Source: a virus
Taxonomy: Duplodnaviria; Heunggongvirae; Uroviricota; Caudoviricetes
Direction: 5' to 3' (one strand)
Length of the DNA stretch: 64,000 nucleotides
IMG/VR virus record: IMGVR_UViG_3300035682_000015
A program made the position numbers and the translations under genes. Below are positions 16,816-54,153 of this stretch, piece by piece. The notes beneath the pieces were generated by a model, which made no database searches, was not told the DNA's origin, and was given only the letters and a program-made list of their open reading frames with translations. Each line of letters begins with the position of its first letter. The stretch's first letter is position 1.

Positions 16816-16963
16816 TTATGATAGAAGATAAGATTGAAACATTTAAAAACAAATAACATGAAACAAACAAATATTGAACCACAATTAATTCCCTTAAAAG
16901 ATTTGATAAAAGAGTGGAAAAAAATAAAAGAATGGTTTAGTAAATTTAAAAAGAAATAAAGAT

Positions 16964-17445: not shown

Positions 17446-17712
17446 ATGAATATATTAGATATTGAAAAATTAAAACAACTTATATCAAGAACTGATATAA
17501 GTGGTAACGATAAGGTAAAATGGCTTACAGACTTTATAGATGGTAGAGAATTTCATCAACAAGAAAGAAGTTATAGTGAGGAAGAAGTATTTAGATTAAC
17601 ATTAGAAGCTTTAGACTTAGGAATGAGAATCAGGCAAGACCAATTAAATGGTTATTCTGAAAAATCTGGTAAAGAATTACATGAAGAATGGTTTGAACAA
17701 TTTAAAAAATAA
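17446..17712 (+). CDS. stand-alone C-module protein (QQERSYSEEE...WFEQFKK)
   Basis: Same module as C-termini of 28226, 29076, 30037 and 31280 genes. Confidence 0.5.
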   Translation: MNILDIEKLKQLISRTDISGNDKVKWLTDFIDGREFHQQERSYSEEEVFRLTLEALDLGMRIRQDQLNGYSEKSGKELHEEWFEQFKK

Positions 17713-26982: not shown

Positions 26983-27495
26983 ATGGTTGATTATCAAACT
27001 TACGAAGAATTACCTAAACGGATTCAATACTATGTGAACTCAATAAAAGAAACGGGTTATGACGATATTAGAAGTTTTCAATTCCCTTGTAAATATTTTG
27101 GGGGTAATTCTTTTGGATGTAGTATTTGGATTGATGCTGAAGAAATGGTAAAAGGTCTCATTCCTTACCGAGGTGTGATTCAAAATATGATAACGAATAG
27201 TTTAACAAAAAATATATTCAATATTGGGTATTTGCATATTTCTGTTCATTATAAAAACAAACAACAGTTGGGTAAGAAATTCCTCCCGGAATTAAAAAAA
27301 CGATTAAAGGAATCTCTTGCCGGTAAATATATTCATTCTGTTCGTTTTGATGAAAACTCTCGTAACAATGACCCCGAAGTTTTTGTTGTGTTAAGACGTG
27401 ATAACGATATTGAAACTTGGGGTATTGTGAAAAATATTCTTGAGGATTTCAAAATTGAAAAAGGTTATCCTAATTTGTATGTTAAAATTTCTTAA
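26983..27495 (+). CDS. hypothetical protein
   Basis: ATG MVDYQTYEEL 18 nt after motif. Confidence 0.5.
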   Translation: MVDYQTYEELPKRIQYYVNSIKETGYDDIRSFQFPCKYFGGNSFGCSIWIDAEEMVKGLIPYRGVIQNMITNSLTKNIFNIGYLHISVHYKNKQQLGKKFLPELKKRLKESLAGKYIHSVRFDENSRNNDPEVFVVLRRDNDIETWGIVKNILEDFKIEKGYPNLYVKIS

Positions 27496-27546
27496 TATTT
27501 GGCCGTATGAAATGTTTGTTATATCTTTGTCGGAAATAAATTGATT

Positions 27547-27690
27547 ATGAGAGATAGAATAAAAAAATGGTGGAATAGGACTTGGTCCAATTGGGAGGTT
27601 GATACTAAGAGTAAGTGGTATTTTTATATTATACTTAAGAGAACATCCAACGATGGTTTAATCCAATTTAAAAAAATAAAAACTGGGGTA
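27547..27690 (+). CDS. small basic protein
   Basis: 47 aa; ATGA overlap with next. Confidence 0.3.
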
Positions 27691-28217
27691 TGAAAAACAT
27701 TTATTTAATTCCGACAGATAAACGGACTCGATTACATTATGACCACACCGGTTTATTTTTATCTCACCATTATCAGGTAAGTAAGGAGATTAATTCAATT
27801 GTTGAAGGCAGATATATCTACATTACATCGGATGAATACATTGGGTTGAATTGGTATATTGATGGTGGCTGGGTAAGAAAGGGTGTTATTGATGATAAGG
27901 ATTATTGGTCTGTTAGAAAGGATTATAAAAAAATCGTTATAACCAATGACCCCAAGTTAATTAAGGATGGCGTTCAGGATATTGGGGACGGTGTGATGGA
28001 TTGGTTCATTGAGAACCCCACCTGTGAATACTTCAATATTGAACAGTACAATTCATATGGGATTGATAATTGGAAGTACTTGGTAACTCTTCCAACGGAT
28101 AAGATTGACTTTGAAAAGGAGTTATCTAAATGGGGTTACAATAAGGGTAATTCAATTGACGTTGAGATTTTGGTTAATGAGATACTTCCAAAATTATTTG
28201 AACAATTTAAAAAATAA
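27690..28217 (+). CDS. modular paralog 1 (N-module MKNIYLIPTDK + diverged central module)
   Basis: Tandem array member. Confidence 0.55.
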   Translation: MKNIYLIPTDKRTRLHYDHTGLFLSHHYQVSKEINSIVEGRYIYITSDEYIGLNWYIDGGWVRKGVIDDKDYWSVRKDYKKIVITNDPKLIKDGVQDIGDGVMDWFIENPTCEYFNIEQYNSYGIDNWKYLVTLPTDKIDFEKELSKWGYNKGNSIDVEILVNEILPKLFEQFKK

Positions 28218-28225
28218 ATAAGATT

Positions 28226-29071
28226 ATGAAAAACATACACGTATTAGGAACAGATAAACCAACTTTTTTACATAAAAGTACAAAAACAGGTATTTTAATG
28301 AAATCATCCGCTTGTATTAATGATATGAAACAAGCACAAGGAATGAACATTTACATCACTTCTGATGAAATAGTTACAAAATATTCAAATGGTTTGTATT
28401 TTATTGATATTTACACAAACACAAGACATATATTTTCACCGATTTATATTAATAAAGATACTATTGCTTTTGGAAAATTTCACACATATATGAATGATGG
28501 TGGTATGTGTAAAAAAATCATCCTAACAACAGACCAAGACTTAATCAAAAATGGTGTACAAGCTATTGATGATGAGTTTTTAGAATGGTTTGTTAAAAAT
28601 CCAAGTTGTGAAAAAATTAGAACTTATTTGACTAAAGTTTTACAAAGTGGTAATCCAACATTTTATAAAGATGATTACAGAATAATCATTCCAAAAGAAG
28701 AACATAAATGTACTTGTGAAAATGGACACCCATATAACAATCTTTGTTGTAAAATACATGGTAAATTCATAAAAGAAGAACCTAAACAAAAATATAAAGA
28801 CTGTAATGGCAATTTAACAGATTGTACTTGTATAGAAGATACTATTGAAATGAAACAAGAAACACTTGAAGAAGTAAGAGATTTATCATATTATAAAGCT
28901 AATGCTGAAGAAGATTATTTAGCAGTTCCAATAAGCGTATTGAGATATATTTCTCAATTAGAGCAACAAGAAAGAAGTTATAGTGAGGAAGATTTAGAAG
29001 TAGCTTATTTTGAAGGTAGAGAAGGATTATATTCATTCAATGATTGGTTTGAACAATTTAAAAAGAAATAA
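28226..29071 (+). CDS. modular paralog 2 (N + central + Cys-rich insert + C-module)
   Basis: MKNIHVLGTDK ... ILTTDQDLIKNGVQAIDDEFLEWFVKNPSCE ... QQERSYSEED..WFEQFKKK. Confidence 0.55.
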   Translation: MKNIHVLGTDKPTFLHKSTKTGILMKSSACINDMKQAQGMNIYITSDEIVTKYSNGLYFIDIYTNTRHIFSPIYINKDTIAFGKFHTYMNDGGMCKKIILTTDQDLIKNGVQAIDDEFLEWFVKNPSCEKIRTYLTKVLQSGNPTFYKDDYRIIIPKEEHKCTCENGHPYNNLCCKIHGKFIKEEPKQKYKDCNGNLTDCTCIEDTIEMKQETLEEVRDLSYYKANAEEDYLAVPISVLRYISQLEQQERSYSEEDLEVAYFEGREGLYSFNDWFEQFKKK

Positions 29072-29075
29072 AATT

Positions 29076-30035
29076 ATGAAAAACATACACATTTTACCAA
29101 CAGATAAACCAAGTAGGTTATGGATGACTAAATTAGGTAATCTAACAAGATGCCACGATATAAAACCTATTAAAGAAGCATTAGGAAATAATGTAAATAA
29201 CTACATCACTTCTGATGAAGAAATTAAAGAAGGAAATTGGTTTGTAAAACCTAAATATTCAAAAGCAATTAAAATTGGATATGAGATTAGTCAAGCTGAT
29301 TCATCTTTTTTTGGAGGGTATGGTTATGATTGGACTGATTGTAAAAAAATCATCTTAACAACAGACCAAGACTTAATCAAAGACGGTGTACAAGCTATTG
29401 ATGATGAGTTTTTAGAATGGTTTGTTAAAAATCCAAGTTGTGAGTTTGTTGAATTGAATAGAAACTATAATCGGGGTAATGGAAAATATTATTACAAAAT
29501 CATCATTCCAAAAGAAGAAGCTAAACAATTATTTACAGACTACCCAATTATTGAATTAGGTGATGACGAATTTAAAGAAGCACCAATAAGAGAATGTGAA
29601 TTACTTTCTTTTGATGATGATGATAATAAGTACTGCTATGTAAAAGTAGGAGGTATTGAAAAAGAAATTAAACGTTGTTATATATACCCACAAAAAGGTA
29701 GATGCGGTGACGTTAATTGTGTTTCAATTAAAGAAATAAAAGAGTTGTTAAAAGAAGAACCTAAACAAGATGCTATTGAATATTCATTAAATGCTTTTAA
29801 AGTTCCAAAAGAATATTTTGGAAAACAAGAAACACTTGGAGAAGCATTATCTGAACATATAAAAGATATAAAATATCCTACTCTAATACAATGTGCTAAA
29901 TTTGGTGCTAAATGGCAACAACAGAGAAGTTATAGTGAGGAAGAAGTTTTAGACTTATTACAAGATTTTGCTAATGACTTATCTGATAATGTAATTAATA
30001 TTAAATTTTGGTTTGAAAAATTTAAAAACAAATAA
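29076..30035 (+). CDS. modular paralog 3
   Basis: MKNIHILPTDKPSRL; central module 97% nt-identical to paralog 2. Confidence 0.55.
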   Translation: MKNIHILPTDKPSRLWMTKLGNLTRCHDIKPIKEALGNNVNNYITSDEEIKEGNWFVKPKYSKAIKIGYEISQADSSFFGGYGYDWTDCKKIILTTDQDLIKDGVQAIDDEFLEWFVKNPSCEFVELNRNYNRGNGKYYYKIIIPKEEAKQLFTDYPIIELGDDEFKEAPIRECELLSFDDDDNKYCYVKVGGIEKEIKRCYIYPQKGRCGDVNCVSIKEIKELLKEEPKQDAIEYSLNAFKVPKEYFGKQETLGEALSEHIKDIKYPTLIQCAKFGAKWQQQRSYSEEEVLDLLQDFANDLSDNVINIKFWFEKFKNK

Positions 30036-30036
30036 G

Positions 30037-30261
30037 ATGAAAGAAACACTTGAAGAAGCTGCTGAAAGAAGATTTCCAAGTAAAACGGAAATGTACGATG
30101 TTTTTATTGAAGGCTCTAAATGGCAACAAGAACAAGACAAGAATAAGTATAGTGAGGAAGATATGCACAATTTAATGGATGAATACCAAAATTGGTTATT
30201 TAATACTAATACCGTAGTATTAACTTTTAGAGAATGGTTTGAACAATTTAAAAACAAATAA
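30037..30261 (+). CDS. stand-alone C-module protein
   Basis: KWQQEQDKNKYSEEDM...WFEQFKNK. Confidence 0.45.
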   Translation: MKETLEEAAERRFPSKTEMYDVFIEGSKWQQEQDKNKYSEEDMHNLMDEYQNWLFNTNTVVLTFREWFEQFKNK

Positions 30262-30265
30262 AATT

Positions 30266-31276
30266 ATGAAAAACGTACACGTACTACCAACAGATAAAAC
30301 GAGTAGGTTAGTTTTAGATGTAAACAATAATTTAGCATTAGCCTTTAATAAATCTATTGAAGAAAATGCGCTGTATAAAAGAACCATCTACATCACTAAT
30401 GATGAAGAAATTAAAGAAAATACCAATGTAAAAGACAAATGGGTAATTTCTGAATATGGTTTTGTTGTAAAAGCAGATAGGATTGAAAACAATTACCTTA
30501 TACACTCAACTGGAGGTTCTAATTTTTTACATCATTATAAATTTATAATTATGACAACAGACCCTCAACTTATTCAAGATGGTGTACAACCTATTGATGA
30601 TGAGTTTTTAGAATTTATAGTTAAGAATCCAAGTTGTGAGTGGGTTGAGGTTGACAAAAATTGGAATTACCCATTAGATAAAAGTTGGGAATATAAATTA
30701 AGAATCATTCCAAAAGAAGAACCTAAACAACTATTTACAAAAGGAGATAAAGTATTGTTTACAGGAAAAATGTTAGATGAAAATGTTGTTGATAAAGTAG
30801 TAACAGTATTTTATACATTAGGTAGAGGAGAGATAGATGATATGTCAGATATAATGGATGAATACACTCACGTTTATAGAGTTTGGAATAAAGATTTAAA
30901 ACACACTTCAAAAGAAGAACCATTAAGTTTTGAAGAATTTAGAAAAATTGCTTCTAAAGAATTACTTGAAAAATTTGATACTGATTGTTTAGAATATTCA
31001 GAAGATGGAGATTTTGATAATTACTTTTACGCTAATTGTAAATATTGGGAAAGTAAACTAAAAGAAGAACCTAAACAAGAATTTGGTTATACTACTAAGA
31101 TGGGTGTTGAGGTTAAGGATGAGATGGTTAGACCACTTATGGTTCCAAAGAAATATTTTGGTGAGGTGGAACATCCGGATTATAGTTCAGTGTTTGATTT
31201 TTTATCCGATAAGGATTACTTAACAGACAAACGAGAAGTTATTGAGAAAGAATTTAAAGAATATTTAAAAAAATAA
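30266..31276 (+). CDS. modular paralog 4
   Basis: MKNVHVLPTDKTSRL; PKEEPKQ linkers x2. Confidence 0.55.
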   Translation: MKNVHVLPTDKTSRLVLDVNNNLALAFNKSIEENALYKRTIYITNDEEIKENTNVKDKWVISEYGFVVKADRIENNYLIHSTGGSNFLHHYKFIIMTTDPQLIQDGVQPIDDEFLEFIVKNPSCEWVEVDKNWNYPLDKSWEYKLRIIPKEEPKQLFTKGDKVLFTGKMLDENVVDKVVTVFYTLGRGEIDDMSDIMDEYTHVYRVWNKDLKHTSKEEPLSFEEFRKIASKELLEKFDTDCLEYSEDGDFDNYFYANCKYWESKLKEEPKQEFGYTTKMGVEVKDEMVRPLMVPKKYFGEVEHPDYSSVFDFLSDKDYLTDKREVIEKEFKEYLKK

Positions 31277-31279
31277 AAT

Positions 31280-31753
31280 ATGAGTAAATGTTATGACAAC
31301 CCCGAGTTTGACGACCAAGAACCTGAAACACAAAATACATGGAAACAATCTATACCAAAAGACAATTTTGACAATGCTTTGGAAAGTTTCAAGGAATCGT
31401 TAATTAAGAAGTGTGACCCCACCCTTAGTGAGAAGTTGGAAAAGGTTGTCTCTAAGGAACCAAGTAAGTTTTGGTCCGAGAGTGATGAGAGGGTTAGAAT
31501 TAAAGAAGAGAAAAAACTTAGAGAGGCGTTTGATGAAATATACGACTCAATTGATTTTAGAGAATTTGACTTTGCGTCGTTTAAGTTGGGAGTTAAATGG
31601 GGACAACAACAAGACGAGAATAAGTATAGTGAGGAAGATATGAGAGATGCTCATCAAATGGGTGCTATTTTTGCTTATGGAAAAAAGGAAGTAACAAGAG
31701 AGGATAGAGTAAAACATTTTGAGGGATGGTTTAATCAAATTAAAAATAAATAA
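31280..31753 (+). CDS. protein with C-module
   Basis: KWGQQQDENKYSEEDM...WFNQIKNK. Confidence 0.5.
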   Translation: MSKCYDNPEFDDQEPETQNTWKQSIPKDNFDNALESFKESLIKKCDPTLSEKLEKVVSKEPSKFWSESDERVRIKEEKKLREAFDEIYDSIDFREFDFASFKLGVKWGQQQDENKYSEEDMRDAHQMGAIFAYGKKEVTREDRVKHFEGWFNQIKNK

Positions 31754-32367
31754 TGGAGTATTGTGAATTACCTAAGGATTCGTTATTAACGAAACTACCC
31801 AATTTTAATTATGTTGGTGAGGATAAGAAGAGATTGAATGTTGTAATTGCCGGTGGTGCTGTCCGGGATAGTTTATTTGGTGACGATTATAGTGATATCG
31901 ACATATTTGGTCTTACCAAAGGTGAATTAGATTCATTTGTGGAGATAAATCTGTCAAAATCACAAGGATATAAGATGGTTTATTTCAACGAGAACCTAAG
32001 AACTTACAGAAAAGGGAAGATTAAGGTTCAAATTATCTACCGAGAGTACGAAAAACTAACAGATATTATTGATTTGTTTGATTTTACCGTATGTCAGTTT
32101 ATGTATGACGGTGAAAAGGTCATTTGTAACCCCTCCGGAATACTAGATGTTCATCATAAGAGGATTATTATCAACCATTTGGAACCTTTATTTGTTTTTG
32201 ATTCGTTAAGACGGGTTCAAAAGTACGTTCAGAAGGGATATACTATCTGTAATGGGGGAATTAAGGACATTTTGGACAAATGTCGGGAATTAACACAGGA
32301 ACAATACGACGAAAACGTAGAATTTTACCCAAATACTGAGGAATATAGGATAATTAGGTTCGATTAA
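31753..32367 (+). CDS. polymerase-beta-type nucleotidyltransferase, CCA/poly(A)-polymerase head-domain-like
   Basis: VVIAGGAVRDSLFGDDYSDIDIF matches the hGGxVRD...DhDh signature of tRNA nucleotidyltransferase/PcnB head domain. Confidence 0.55.
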   Translation: MEYCELPKDSLLTKLPNFNYVGEDKKRLNVVIAGGAVRDSLFGDDYSDIDIFGLTKGELDSFVEINLSKSQGYKMVYFNENLRTYRKGKIKVQIIYREYEKLTDIIDLFDFTVCQFMYDGEKVICNPSGILDVHHKRIIINHLEPLFVFDSLRRVQKYVQKGYTICNGGIKDILDKCRELTQEQYDENVEFYPNTEEYRIIRFD

Positions 32368-32385
32368 AATTAAAAAAAATAAGAT

Positions 32386-32556
32386 ATGAAAACAATTTTG
32401 TGGTTTATAGTTAGTCATTTGGTGTTATATGTGTTGGGAAGTTTTATTGCTTGGGATTTGAACCCTTTGAATTGGTGGTTATTCACCTCATCCTTTGGTA
32501 GGGTGTTGTTTGTTATTATTGAATTGTTTTGGATTGGTAATTCTTTGAGTGATTAA
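32386..32556 (+). CDS. small membrane peptide
   Basis: 56 aa, two hydrophobic segments. Confidence 0.3.
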   Translation: MKTILWFIVSHLVLYVLGSFIAWDLNPLNWWLFTSSFGRVLFVIIELFWIGNSLSD

Positions 32557-51951: not shown

Positions 51952-52125
51952 ATGGGACTTATAAATAATCTTTATGCTGTGTATGAAAAATCACCGGCAC
52001 ACGGGAGCAAAGAACATAATGTAATTTTGGCTCCTTTCAAAACTAAAGAAGAGGCAGAACAAAACAGAATTAAATACGGTTATAACACCGATAATTATTA
52101 CGTAGATATTTTGAAATATGAATAA
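51952..52125 (+). CDS. hypothetical small protein
   Basis: 57 aa, stop overlaps thyA start. Confidence 0.3.
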   Translation: MGLINNLYAVYEKSPAHGSKEHNVILAPFKTKEEAEQNRIKYGYNTDNYYVDILKYE

Positions 52126-53266
52126 ACTAGATAAACAATACACAGACCTTCTCCAAGACATTCTTGACAACGGAGTAACAAAACAAGACAGAACAGGTAC
52201 AGGGACAATCTCAGTATTCGGAAGACAAATACGTCACGATATGAAAGATGGTTTTCCTCTTTTGACTACAAAGAAAATGCCATTCAAAACAATCGTAACA
52301 GAACTTCTTTGGTTCTTACGAGGAGATACCAACATTAAGTTTTTGGTTGATAATAATTGTCATATTTGGGATGGTGATTGCTACAAATCTTATAAACAAA
52401 GTATTTTAGAATCCTTTGATAGATTATCAAATGACCCCGTAATAGATGCGATGCCACCTAGAATATTAACACAAGAAGAATTCACCAACAAAATCAAAAC
52501 AGATGATGAGTTTGCTAAGAAGTGGGGTGAGTTAGGTCCTGTGTACGGTAAGCAATGGAGAAAGTGGGGTTATGATAGTGATAAATGGAGAGAAGACTAT
52601 AACAAATTACAATTTGGTTCTAAAGAAGAAATTGAACACCTTAGTAAAAAAGGTATAGACCAAATCACAAACCTAATCAACGACCTTAAAACAAATCCAG
52701 ACTCAAGACGATTGATGGTTAATGCTTGGAATGTTGGAGAATTAGACCAAATGGTTCTTCCACCTTGTCATTATGGATTTCAAGTTTATACAAGAGAGTT
52801 GAGTTTAGATGATAGAAAAGATATTTGGAATAAAAACAATTTCAGTCAAGATATGTCGTGGCATAATATGGAAGAACACGATATTATGGATTTACTAAAC
52901 GATAATGACATCCCAAAACGAGCAATCTCTTTAATGTTTAATATGAGGTCAAATGATGTTCCATTAGGGCTTCCATTTAATATATCATCTTATGGTTTAT
53001 TATTAGAAATTATTGGGAAAATGGTTAATATGATACCTGACGAATTAATTACTAATTTAGGTGATGCTCATATCTATAAAAACCAAGTAGATGGTGTTAA
53101 AGAACAATTAACAAGGAAACCATTTGAATTACCTAAATTAGTTATGTCTAACCAAATTAATTTTAATGAAAGTGTTGCTGAATTTTTGAATAGTTGTCTA
53201 ATAACTGATTTTATTGTTGAAAATTATCAATCACATCCAACCATAAAAATGCCATTATCTAACTAG
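52118..53266 (+). CDS. thyA: thymidylate synthase family (ThyA, long-insert type); possibly pyrimidine hydroxymethylase
   Basis: DRTGTGT, ELLWFLRGDTN, LGPVYGKQWR, LPPCHYGFQ (catalytic Cys), DVPLGLPFNISSYG; L. casei-like small-domain insert plus extra ~35-aa insert. Confidence 0.8.
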   Translation: MNKLDKQYTDLLQDILDNGVTKQDRTGTGTISVFGRQIRHDMKDGFPLLTTKKMPFKTIVTELLWFLRGDTNIKFLVDNNCHIWDGDCYKSYKQSILESFDRLSNDPVIDAMPPRILTQEEFTNKIKTDDEFAKKWGELGPVYGKQWRKWGYDSDKWREDYNKLQFGSKEEIEHLSKKGIDQITNLINDLKTNPDSRRLMVNAWNVGELDQMVLPPCHYGFQVYTRELSLDDRKDIWNKNNFSQDMSWHNMEEHDIMDLLNDNDIPKRAISLMFNMRSNDVPLGLPFNISSYGLLLEIIGKMVNMIPDELITNLGDAHIYKNQVDGVKEQLTRKPFELPKLVMSNQINFNESVAEFLNSCLITDFIVENYQSHPTIKMPLSN

Positions 53267-53322
53267 TTTTTTCATAATTTTATGATATTTATATTAAAGA
53301 GTAATCCTTAAACTAAATCAAT

Positions 53323-54153
53323 ATGAAAAAGTTTTTAATCTATGAAATAAAAAACAATATAAATGGTAAATCTTATATTGGACAATATAGTGGTGAGTCA
53401 TTTGAAAAGTATTTTGGAAGTGGAAAATTAATTAAGTTATCAATAAAAAAATATGGGTTAGAAAATTTTTCTAAAACAATTTTAGAAGAGTGCTTTAATA
53501 AAAATGAATTGAATGAAAAAGAAATTTTTTGGATAGATAAATTAAAAACTATTGAAAATGGTTATAATTTGACTGAAGGTGGAACAGGGGGTGATTTGTC
53601 TGAATTTATAAAGTATGGTGAGAATTGGGTTGAAAAACAAAGAATCTCCACAAAAAAATATTGGGACAATCTAACTGAAGATGAAAGAAAAAAAAGAAGT
53701 GAAATTGTTTCAGGTGAAAAAAATGGGATGTATGGTAAAGATGGATTTTGGAAGGGTAAAAAAATACCAATAGATATTATTAAAAAGTCATTGGAGAATA
53801 GAAGAAGTTACGATAAAGAACAAAACCCAAATTGGAAAGGTGGTGTTACATATGTTTATTGTGAATGTGGTAAAAGAATAGGTTATGGTCACATTCATTG
53901 TAACAAATGTAGACCTAGAACTAAAAACAATAATCCATTTTATGGGAAACAACATTCCGAAGAGACTAAAAAAAAATTAAGTGAAAAAAGGAAAGGGGTA
54001 AAACCAACAAATATGAAACCGGTAATGATTGATAATATTATTTATGAAAGTTTGGCGGAAGCGTCAAATATACTTAAAATTCCAATGGTTACAATTCGTT
54101 GGAGAGTGAAAAGTAATAATGAAAAATTTAATAATTACCAATATAAAGAATAA
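53323..54153 (+). CDS. GIY-YIG homing endonuclease
   Basis: IYEIKNNINGKSYIGQ ... NGYNLTEGGTGG; NUMOD-like repeats; Cys4 zinc finger CECGKRIGYGHIHCNKCR. Confidence 0.75.
   Translation: MKKFLIYEIKNNINGKSYIGQYSGESFEKYFGSGKLIKLSIKKYGLENFSKTILEECFNKNELNEKEIFWIDKLKTIENGYNLTEGGTGGDLSEFIKYGENWVEKQRISTKKYWDNLTEDERKKRSEIVSGEKNGMYGKDGFWKGKKIPIDIIKKSLENRRSYDKEQNPNWKGGVTYVYCECGKRIGYGHIHCNKCRPRTKNNNPFYGKQHSEETKKKLSEKRKGVKPTNMKPVMIDNIIYESLAEASNILKIPMVTIRWRVKSNNEKFNNYQYKE

Follow-up and report, generated by a model that had tools for sequence, protein, structure and literature searches.

A short in-frame DNA joint at the module borders of a hypervariable phage gene family

Introduction

The question raised by this locus is why one and the same 18-nucleotide (nt) DNA sequence should stand, in frame, wherever the parts of a group of related phage proteins meet. 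The sequence lies in a 64,000-nt stretch, here called the window, of a virus of the class Caudoviricetes (IMG/VR record IMGVR_UViG_3300035682_000015). It belongs to an array of six head-to-tail paralogs, G1 to G6, which occupies 27690-31753 on the + strand with gene spacings of 1-8 nt. What is being retained at these borders, the DNA or the peptide that it encodes, and have modules been exchanged there? The answer favoured here, to which a probability of about 0.7 is attached, is that the 18-mer acts as an in-frame joint, a micro-homology at which recombination would reassort modules while homogenising the copies of the joint itself.

The 18-mer and its copies

A search of the whole window for the 18-mer, AAAGAAGAACCTAAACAA, returns four exact copies on the + strand (Table 1) and one, at 29511, with a single mismatch that changes CCT to GCT; beyond these five there are zero further matches at up to two mismatches. 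The original prediction, made from the letters of the window alone, had listed these same five positions, and they were reproduced. The peptide contexts that it quoted at module joins are correct, and its view that the copies are unexpected by chance agrees with an expectation of 0.01 matches and with the finding that 0 of 100 dinucleotide-preserving shuffles gave five. Its statement that each copy encodes KEEPKQ holds for the four exact copies, the one at 29511 reading KEEAKQ. All five are in frame and fall within three of the six paralogs (G2, G3 and G5). What had been overlooked are the degenerate joints, the half-joints and the free-standing C-domain gene G4. Every border between N-domain, module and C-domain in the array holds either the 18-mer or a decayed form of it (KEEHKC, KEEPLS or AAACAA half-joints).

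The minimal canonical protein of the family is composed of an N-domain, IIPKEEPKQ, ETLEEA... and a C-domain. Longer members carry modules inserted at the joint, each of which is flanked by one more copy of the joint.

Partner switching at the joint

What becomes of sequence identity at these borders when related phages are compared? Two sets of loci were used, namely (i) 80 related viral loci, the encoded proteins of which are only 33-55% identical, and (ii) loci obtained by scanning IMG/VR for the exact 18-mer. Fifty of the 80 contain the 18-mer with no more than one mismatch, in every case on the gene strand, and among the matches listed for the second set (118 IMG/VR loci) 54 of 125 exact copies adjoin family domains. 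The ends of blastn high-scoring segment pairs (HSPs) from related loci pile up at the 3' end of the joints that follow N-domains, with 61, 44 and 35 HSPs stopping at single positions (Table 1).

For instance, the L126/L196 gene, which was assembled from two different samples, consists of an N-domain, a KEEPLS joint, a module 97.7% identical to G5 30909-31080, a KEEFKQ joint and a module that matches G3 29749-29829 at 97.5%. Inside the joint the identity to G5 ends and that to G3 sets in, the two tracts overlapping on the joint only; on their outer sides the tracts are bounded by the KEEPLS joint and the KQ half-joint. Locus L200, which encodes protein P0003 (called in two samples, with DNA read from one only), has four stretches of similarity to the window. 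Over 391 nt its N-domain shares 93.4% identity with that of G3 and then gives way to a private variable segment, after which come G5 30909-31082 (module M2) at 99.4% and G2 28770-28877 (module Mb) at 95.4%; the G5-like and G2-like HSPs overlap solely at L200 1379-1402, which is the joint. From the arrangements in the window, L126 and L200 it follows that one G5 module has three right-hand partners in three genomes, connected through the 18-mer. Modules that are 95-99% identical to those of the window occur in genes whose proteins otherwise share 35-55% identity, and both partners of every observed switch carry the joint.

The same behaviour was seen when 169 deduplicated joint instances were compared over 45-nt flanks. 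Of the 21 pairs with at least one flank at least 85% identical, about ten were family pairs in which the other flank fell below 50%; no family pair had both flanks at or above 85%, and the five pairs that did were all unrelated non-family genes containing the 18-mer. Between L119 and G3 at the 29751 joint, the left flank is 89% and the right flank 44% identical. The proportion of synonymous differences (pS) between G3 and its L119 ortholog is 0.33, an ordinary value, in a conserved N-domain block and lower, 0.195, in module M1, where the ratio of nonsynonymous to synonymous divergence (dN/dS) is 0.32, a pattern that is consistent with a mosaic history. Within a single contig, L167, two paralogs share a tract of ~140 nt, 87-100% identical, that begins just after the NPSCE block and closes with the joint, beyond which identity is at random level; this is an intragenomic example. 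L126, L200, L167 and the pairs from the flank comparison are natural chimeras with exchange points in or next to the motif. The reading of the 18-mer as a recombination joint, put forward in the original prediction, gains support from L126 and L200, whose tracts switch partner inside it, and the further expectation that related phages would have the same 18-mer at breakpoints was borne out by the 50 loci and by the switches within it.

An additional feature of L126 (6650-6760) is that the chimeric gene stops just after GKQ, as GKQV and a stop codon. Next come, out of frame, the remains of a C-domain end (...FEQFIKQFKNK and stop) and, after these, a separate C-domain gene. This arrangement is a sign of recent deletion or rearrangement at the half-joint.

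Conservation as DNA or as peptide

Is the joint kept for its nucleotides or for its amino acids? With the codon usage of the window, the probability of the 18-mer given KEEPKQ is 0.065, CCT accounting for just 26% of Pro codons, and that of identical codons in four independently drawn copies is 1.8e-4, so that the nucleotide identity exceeds what a conserved peptide and codon bias would produce together. Across the family precisely this DNA encodes 24 of 28 KEEPKQ peptides, and 27 of the 28 have CCT as their Pro codon. Codon conservation is likewise high in other family motifs, and for this reason a synonymous/nonsynonymous control was needed. Deduplicated near-copies (up to two mismatches) of each conserved family 18-mer were collected and their mismatches classed as one or the other. 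The variants of the joint comprise 9 synonymous and 66 nonsynonymous changes, that is 12% synonymous against a neutral expectation of 16% (p = 0.88). The core blocks, with a neutral expectation of 14-25%, have synonymous shares of 98% (IILTTD), 83% (WFVKNP), 80% (KNPSCE), 74% (DDEFLE) and 65% (YSEEEV), all with p < 1e-13. The gene end WFEQFK is neutral-like too (9% vs 10% synonymous), and by the same control ITSDEE and DGVQAI have no significant synonymous excess. Exact copies make up 24 of 76 for the joint, compared with 2 of 59 to 7 of 73 for the three most drifting core blocks. The lack of a synonymous excess, together with more frequent exactness, indicates that the joint is kept as a nucleotide sequence and not as a peptide. 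Two simpler statements, that codon-level conservation is unique to the joint or that it is equally strong in all motifs, were both dropped, given that most core blocks drift synonymously while the joint and the gene end do not.

Mechanism and alternative explanations

How might a joint of this kind operate? The 18-mer encodes the inter-module linker (canonically ...YKIIIP-KEEPKQ-ETLEEA...) of beads-on-a-string proteins in which anything from none to four small middle modules stands between N-domain and C-domain, and recombination between two of its copies would swap, insert or delete whole modules. As the same ~18-nt sequence stands in the same frame at every border, modules could be exchanged without a frameshift and without splitting a folded unit. 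The recombining copies would belong to paralogs of a single genome or to co-infecting relatives, and repeated exchange would keep the copies alike through concerted evolution, which would explain why all three codon positions are conserved though the amino acids vary freely. The position of the joint at module borders, the change of identity partner at it and its conservation at the DNA level are established by the comparisons above. We infer in addition that the short homology itself promotes crossovers, probably via a phage short-homology recombination system, although homology-driven crossing-over, template switching and gene conversion would look alike from sequence alone.

A number of points weigh against this reading. 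Selection alone would also concentrate breakpoints at domain borders, and 18 nt is short for RecA-type homologous recombination. The case for exchange is built entirely on comparisons of metagenome assemblies, and the joint is shorter than typical assembly k-mers. The neutral synonymous expectation ignores transition and AT bias. Copies of the joint are identical in 35% of comparisons within a locus against 12% between loci (permutation p = 0.004), which speaks for the reading, but the four copies of the window supply half of the identical pairs and so weight the test. The 18-mer is also not unique, since the gene start, ITSDEE, the NPSCE block and the gene end bound exchanged segments as well. 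Finally, the paralogs of the window itself have no high-identity tract that ends at the 18-mer, and a 97% tract between G2 and G3 (28508-28611) stops at the NPSCE block instead. Mapping the ends of identity between paralogs, proposed in the original prediction, therefore places them at the 18-mer between phages and for the L167 paralogs, but not among the paralogs of the window.

Could selection on the products account for the same pattern? If recombination were random or illegitimate and only in-frame, domain-intact products survived, the 18-mer would be a tolerated flexible linker inherited with its module. The joints do sit between folded units in the AlphaFold model, and degenerate or shortened linkers (KDKQ, KENYKQ and the KQ half-joints) indicate that the full 18-mer is dispensable for a viable protein. 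A tolerated linker should, however, drift, whereas the joint is more often exact than most blocks and has no synonymous excess. The retention of a minority Pro codon at non-homologous positions and the presence of the joint in both partners of every switch also argue against selection alone, which is considered unlikely. The absence of a synonymous excess also counts against a functional peptide, as do the identical codons that such a peptide would leave unexplained. KEEPKQ could in principle be a docking motif or a processing site, for example for a protease that frees small modules from a polyprotein; the motif flanks every module, many modules are Cys-rich peptides of 18-45 amino acids (aa), and multi-core peptide precursors with repeated recognition sequences have a similar layout. 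Yet single-residue variants occur nearly everywhere (Q/E/N/T/V/L at position 1, A/S/H/F/T/V/Q at position 4 and K/P/L/D/E at position 6), and a protease or maturation gene was not found beside the array, which leaves this role improbable.

Conservation at the DNA level is what would be expected if the joint were the target of a nuclease or recombinase, such as a homing endonuclease, with breaks stimulating local exchange. In P0051 an HNH homing endonuclease (NUMOD4 + HNH_3) comes after two N-domains and begins directly behind YRYKIIIP, exactly where a joint would be expected, and an I-TevI-like GIY-YIG endonuclease is encoded elsewhere in the window. A site-specific element of this type nevertheless has little to commend it, as this fusion is a single example, no endonuclease gene is found in or beside the array of the window, and other conserved blocks act alike, which fits general homology better than one specific site. 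The last alternative dispenses with exchange and appeals to ancient internal duplications, to chance identity through codon bias or to assembly artefacts. The genome is AT-rich with AAA, GAA and CAA as preferred codons, and all related sequences are metagenome assemblies. Set against this are the chance expectation and codon probability given above, the 95-99% modules within otherwise divergent genes, the recovery of L126/L196 from two samples (and of P0003 as a call in two) and of the array of the window on 24 contigs, and the fact that the shared stretch of 18-24 nt is below assembler k-mer sizes. An absence of exchange is in consequence scarcely credible.

A stronger version of the joint reading is advanced only tentatively and may well be wrong. 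On this view the joint would be more than a historical by-product: large freshwater phages would possess a system of combinatorial diversification, and the joint would be its selected recombination signal. The genes of the tandem arrays, whether complete or partial (N-only, C-only and module-bearing), would recombine at the 18-nt joints and at stop/start junctions during replication or co-infection, giving a continuous supply of new in-frame module sets for an accessory or host-interaction protein. If true, the system would parallel cassette-based antigenic variation, but in viruses and with whole protein modules as its units.

Other joints in the same genes

The 18-mer is the most striking joint of these genes because it recurs within them, but HSP ends accumulate at the ends of other blocks also (28262, 28611 and 30418). 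The N-domain contains three variable segments that reassort among proteins; between P0003 and G3, for example, the first two are 100% shared and the third is not, while the third variable segment of G5 recurs in P0100, P0103 and P0117. These segments are non-homologous replacements with 13-35% aa identity, for which reason a dN/dS calculation for positive selection is meaningless and was dropped. The same pattern rules out a diversity-generating retroelement, as the segments are not point-mutated copies and the repeats in 27000-32500 are conserved family blocks rather than template/variable pairs. No reverse transcriptase was found among the 16 open reading frames (ORFs) of the window that were scanned against Pfam. 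Target-site duplication by a transposon-like insertion was likewise ruled out, the modules being heterogeneous, without a transposase and with the same flanking sequence family-wide.

A second kind of joint is probably provided by a block of ~79 nt at the stop/start junction between genes, which is repeated at 28192-28270 and 30232-30310 with 76-90% identity over three gene borders. Many HSPs span 29035-29087, and the block is conserved in many related loci. The letters of the junction are TGGTTTGAACAATTTAAAAA.AAATAA AATT ATGAAAAACATACAC... In P0022, P0044 and P0056 two or three N-domains are fused in one ORF, and the fusions of P0022 and P0044 pass through ...KE[EK]PKPLKKI[IT]MKNIH... The family as a whole is a series of conserved DNA anchors that alternate with exchangeable segments.

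Organisation of the array

The identical array is present on 24 contigs, and the same genes are called on public contigs that bear an identical G3 protein. Protein alignment and HMM searches define an N-domain of ~145 aa (MKNIHVLPTDKPSRL ... YITSDEEIKEG ... KKIILTTDQDLIKDGVQAIDDEFLEWFVKNPSCE ... YKIIIP), found in G1, G2, G3 and G5, and a helical C-domain of ~70 aa (ETLEEA ... GAKWQQERSYSEEE ... WFEQFKKK), found in G2, G3, G4, G6 and an extra gene outside the array (17446-17712). Between N- and C-terminal parts, G2, G3 and G5 hold small unrelated middle modules. The two of G2, Ma and Mb, are found with other neighbours in P0005, P0056, P0003, P0013 and P0106. In the AlphaFold model of G3, which has a mean predicted local distance difference test (pLDDT) score of 69.7, residues 1-145 form a confidently predicted beta-rich N-domain and residues 251-319 a helical C-domain. 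The two joints, at residues 146-151 and 226-231, fall in coil or low-confidence sequence outside both domains. The partial genes, N-only G1 and C-only G4 and 17446-17712, each have their own ATG and stop, and G6 has a possible degenerate joint, IKEEKKL, near 31503.

Table 1. Joints, genes and junction block of the family in the 64 kb window
Position	Strand	Feature	Basis or associated observation
17446..17712	+	Free-standing C-domain gene outside the array, 88 aa (...QQERSYSEEEV...EEWFEQFKK)	C-domain HMM E 8e-10
27690..28217	+	G1, 175 aa, N-domain only, ends ...LFEQFKK, without KEEPKQ joint	ORF; N-domain HMM E 2e-30; called on public contig too
28226..29071	+	G2, 281 aa: N-domain, KEEHKC, Cys-rich Ma, 18-mer, Cys-rich Mb, KQ half-joint, C-domain	ORF, alignment, HMM
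28694..28711	+	Degenerate joint AAAGAAGAACATAAATGT (KEEHKC), end of G2 N-domain	35 blastn HSPs of related loci stop at 28708
28772..28789	+	Exact 18-mer, Ma/Mb joint of G2 (FI-KEEPKQ-KYKDC)	Sequence match; 95.4% L200 tract begins 28770
28853..28858	+	Half-joint AAACAA (KQ) immediately 5' of ETLEEV, start of G2 C-domain	HSPs to L079, L116, L167 begin 28850-28857
29042..29120	+	Gene-junction block, ~79 nt: WFEQFKKK, stop, AATT, ATG AAA AAC ATA CAC...PTDKP	Repeat family D2
29076..30035	+	G3, 319 aa: N-domain, KEEAKQ, M1 (74 aa), 18-mer, M2 (18 aa), KQ half-joint, C-domain	ORF, alignment, HMM, AlphaFold
29511..29528	+	1-mismatch joint KEEAKQ, end of G3 N-domain	61 HSPs of related loci stop exactly at 29528
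29751..29768	+	Exact 18-mer, M1/M2 joint of G3	97.5% L126 tract spans 29749-29829
29823..29828	+	Half-joint AAACAA (KQ) before ETLGEA of G3	Full KEEPKQ follows the same module M2 in P0049, P0104, P0062
30037..30261	+	G4, 74 aa, free-standing C-domain beginning at joint (MK-ETLEEA...WFEQFKNK)	ORF; C-domain HMM E 6e-21; on public contig
30266..31276	+	G5, 336 aa: N-domain, 18-mer, M1, KEEPLS, M2, 18-mer, M3; without canonical C-domain	ORF, alignment, HMM
30713..30730	+	Exact 18-mer, end of G5 N-domain	44 HSPs stop at 30730
30911..30928	+	Degenerate joint AAAGAAGAACCATTAAGT (KEEPLS), left border of G5 module M2	L126 (97.7%) and L200 (99.4%) tracts begin 30909
31061..31078	+	Exact 18-mer, right border of G5 module M2	L126 and L200 tracts stop at 31080 and 31082
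31280..31753	+	G6, 157 aa: unrelated N-terminal part and C-domain (...KWGQQQDENKYSEEDM...WFNQIKNK)	ORF; C-domain HMM E 1.4e-9

Further pieces of the family lie outside these genes. A 41-aa ORF at 16834-16959 ends in KEWFSKFKKK. Upstream of G1, a 50-aa ORF (27541-27693) ends in NDGLIQFKKIK, its DNA being 72% identical to the WFEQFKKK gene-end block, and looks like a decayed family gene end that overlaps the start of G1. No Shine-Dalgarno-like sequence is seen ahead of the ATGs of the array (e.g. AAATAAAATTATG), and within the array promoter-like sites (28 vs 32.5 expected) and terminator-like sites (1 vs 1.7) are not enriched. Together with the spacing of 1-8 nt, these observations would fit co-transcription and a host in which Shine-Dalgarno sequences are not used.

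Size and spread of the family

G3 matches at least 8,000 protein clusters (90% identity), nearly all without a functional name and none with a Pfam domain for the family. A search with the N-domain returned 5,006 representatives of 50%-identity clusters, 4,392 of them with E <= 1e-10. The members are unannotated and all come from uncultured phages (metagenomes). Neither Pfam nor PHROGs had a hit above threshold for any of G1-G6, the array had no blastn match among 50,697 isolated-phage records, and a full-text literature search on family peptide motifs such as KEEPKQ found no paper. With tblastn against isolated phages only module M1 was matched, in Pseudomonas jumbo phages. The matches of M1 (window 29526-29726, G3 residues 151-217) are to hypothetical proteins of PA5oct, Ettore, Paride and Callisto, at 36-39% identity with a best E of 2e-5, and these matches outside the family mark M1 as an independent domain.

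How general is the arrangement of joints within the family? In the best 120 hits, copies of the joint (up to one aa mismatch) number one in 58, two in 24, three in 6 and four in 2. At least one copy is present in 59% of 124 further diverse representatives, where the continuation is ETLE in 28 cases and one of ~50 other sequences elsewhere. Each module of the window recurs, at the protein level, with changed neighbours and with KEEPKQ-like linkers on both sides. Thus M1 of G3 is found in 29 other proteins, 14 of which, those listed, give at least 8 distinct downstream partners.

Comparison with known systems

The closest analogue is found in the adhesins of T-even phages, in which glycine-rich motifs (GRMs) separate hypervariable segments of gp38 and 'His boxes' are present in gp37 (Tetart et al. 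1996/1998, as cited in PMC3157838). Both systems alternate short, strictly conserved in-frame motifs with hypervariable segments, and in both the outcome is in-frame reassortment, of specificity determinants in the case of the adhesins. Recombinants of gp38 were obtained experimentally, whereas the exchanges described here are known from comparison. In gp38 the GRMs make up the structural core of one domain, and their peptide sequence is essential; the joint, in contrast, is an inter-domain linker with freely variable amino acids, and it flanks unrelated whole modules that number from 0 to 4. The present family is, moreover, a tandem multi-copy family of early or accessory genes and not a virion adhesin, and no sequence or fold similarity of its proteins to gp38 or gp37 of T-even phages was detected.

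Promoter-early stem-loop (PeSL) cassettes of T4-type phages are intergenic regulatory cassettes that move whole genes (PMC2839356, PMC4122927). They resemble the joint in being short conserved sequences, dispersed in hyperplastic regions of large phages, whose copies recombine and shuffle modules. However, a PeSL is intergenic and combines a sigma-70-like promoter with a terminator stem-loop, whereas the 18-mer lies in coding sequence, is read in frame and moves portions of proteins. A PeSL-like regulatory element was accordingly ruled out, the 18-mer lying in frame inside ORFs without promoter or terminator enrichment.

Polymorphic toxins have demarcation motifs (VENN in CdiA, PxxxxDPxGL in Rhs) and orphan modules. 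The likeness is that a motif marks the border between constant and exchangeable parts and that the nearby partial genes, N-only G1 and C-only G4, could be donors. Unlike those toxins, the present genes have no toxin/immunity pair, secretion context or homology to them, and they have several joints per gene with stackable modules; no toxin or immunity domain was detected in G1-G6 by Pfam or PHROGs, and the genes that follow the modules are further paralogs. Cassette-based antigenic variation is represented by Borrelia vlsE, with cassettes flanked by 17-bp direct repeats, and by the mini-cassettes of Neisseria pilE/pilS. These systems rely on one expression site and silent, promoterless donors, with unidirectional conversion within one genome. 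Direct repeats of similar length around exchangeable coding cassettes and tandem arrays of partial copies are common to them and to the phage array, but each paralog of the array possesses a start and a stop of its own, and most of the exchanges documented here took place between phage genomes.

The mosaic nature of phage proteins is well known, but sequence features for in-frame domain exchange have so far been documented for few virion proteins only. What is distinct here is that one short joint is reused at every module border in a family of ~5,000 clusters (50% identity), that natural before-and-after evidence of exchange is available at the resolution of a single joint, and that there is a statistical signature of the DNA, not the encoded peptide, being retained. 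Relative to the gp38 and PeSL systems, the new elements are an inter-domain linker conserved as DNA, a variable number of whole modules and a huge multi-copy non-structural family. The joint offers a concrete instance in which second-order selection for recombinability, or else the concerted evolution of a micro-homology, can be put to the test, and a natural "Lego" standard for in-frame module swapping that phage engineering could adopt. A very large hypervariable protein family in an accessory region is also a candidate player in phage-host conflict.

Genomic setting

The array is a set of hypervariable tandem genes among small + strand genes of a large phage, and the hypervariability and gene neighbourhood suggest an accessory or host-interaction role for the proteins. 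The gene that follows the array (31753-32367, 204 aa) has a nucleotidyltransferase-like GGAVRD...DID motif; the precomputed annotation of a public contig gives it as PF26128 Gad2 (anti-Gabija), an assignment that our own hmmscan (E <= 1e-3) did not recover. An FGase-like gene lies upstream of the array.

Elsewhere in the window, the stretch 52118-54153 holds two genes. The first encodes a thymidylate synthase (PF00303, E 6e-94) of 382 aa against a profile of 266 positions, a difference indicating that the protein carries an insertion. Directly after it comes a gene for an I-TevI-like homing endonuclease, the domains of which are GIY-YIG, I-TevI zinc finger, NUMOD3 and I-TevI DNA-binding. The pairing recalls the association of td and I-TevI in T4, although here the endonuclease is free-standing.

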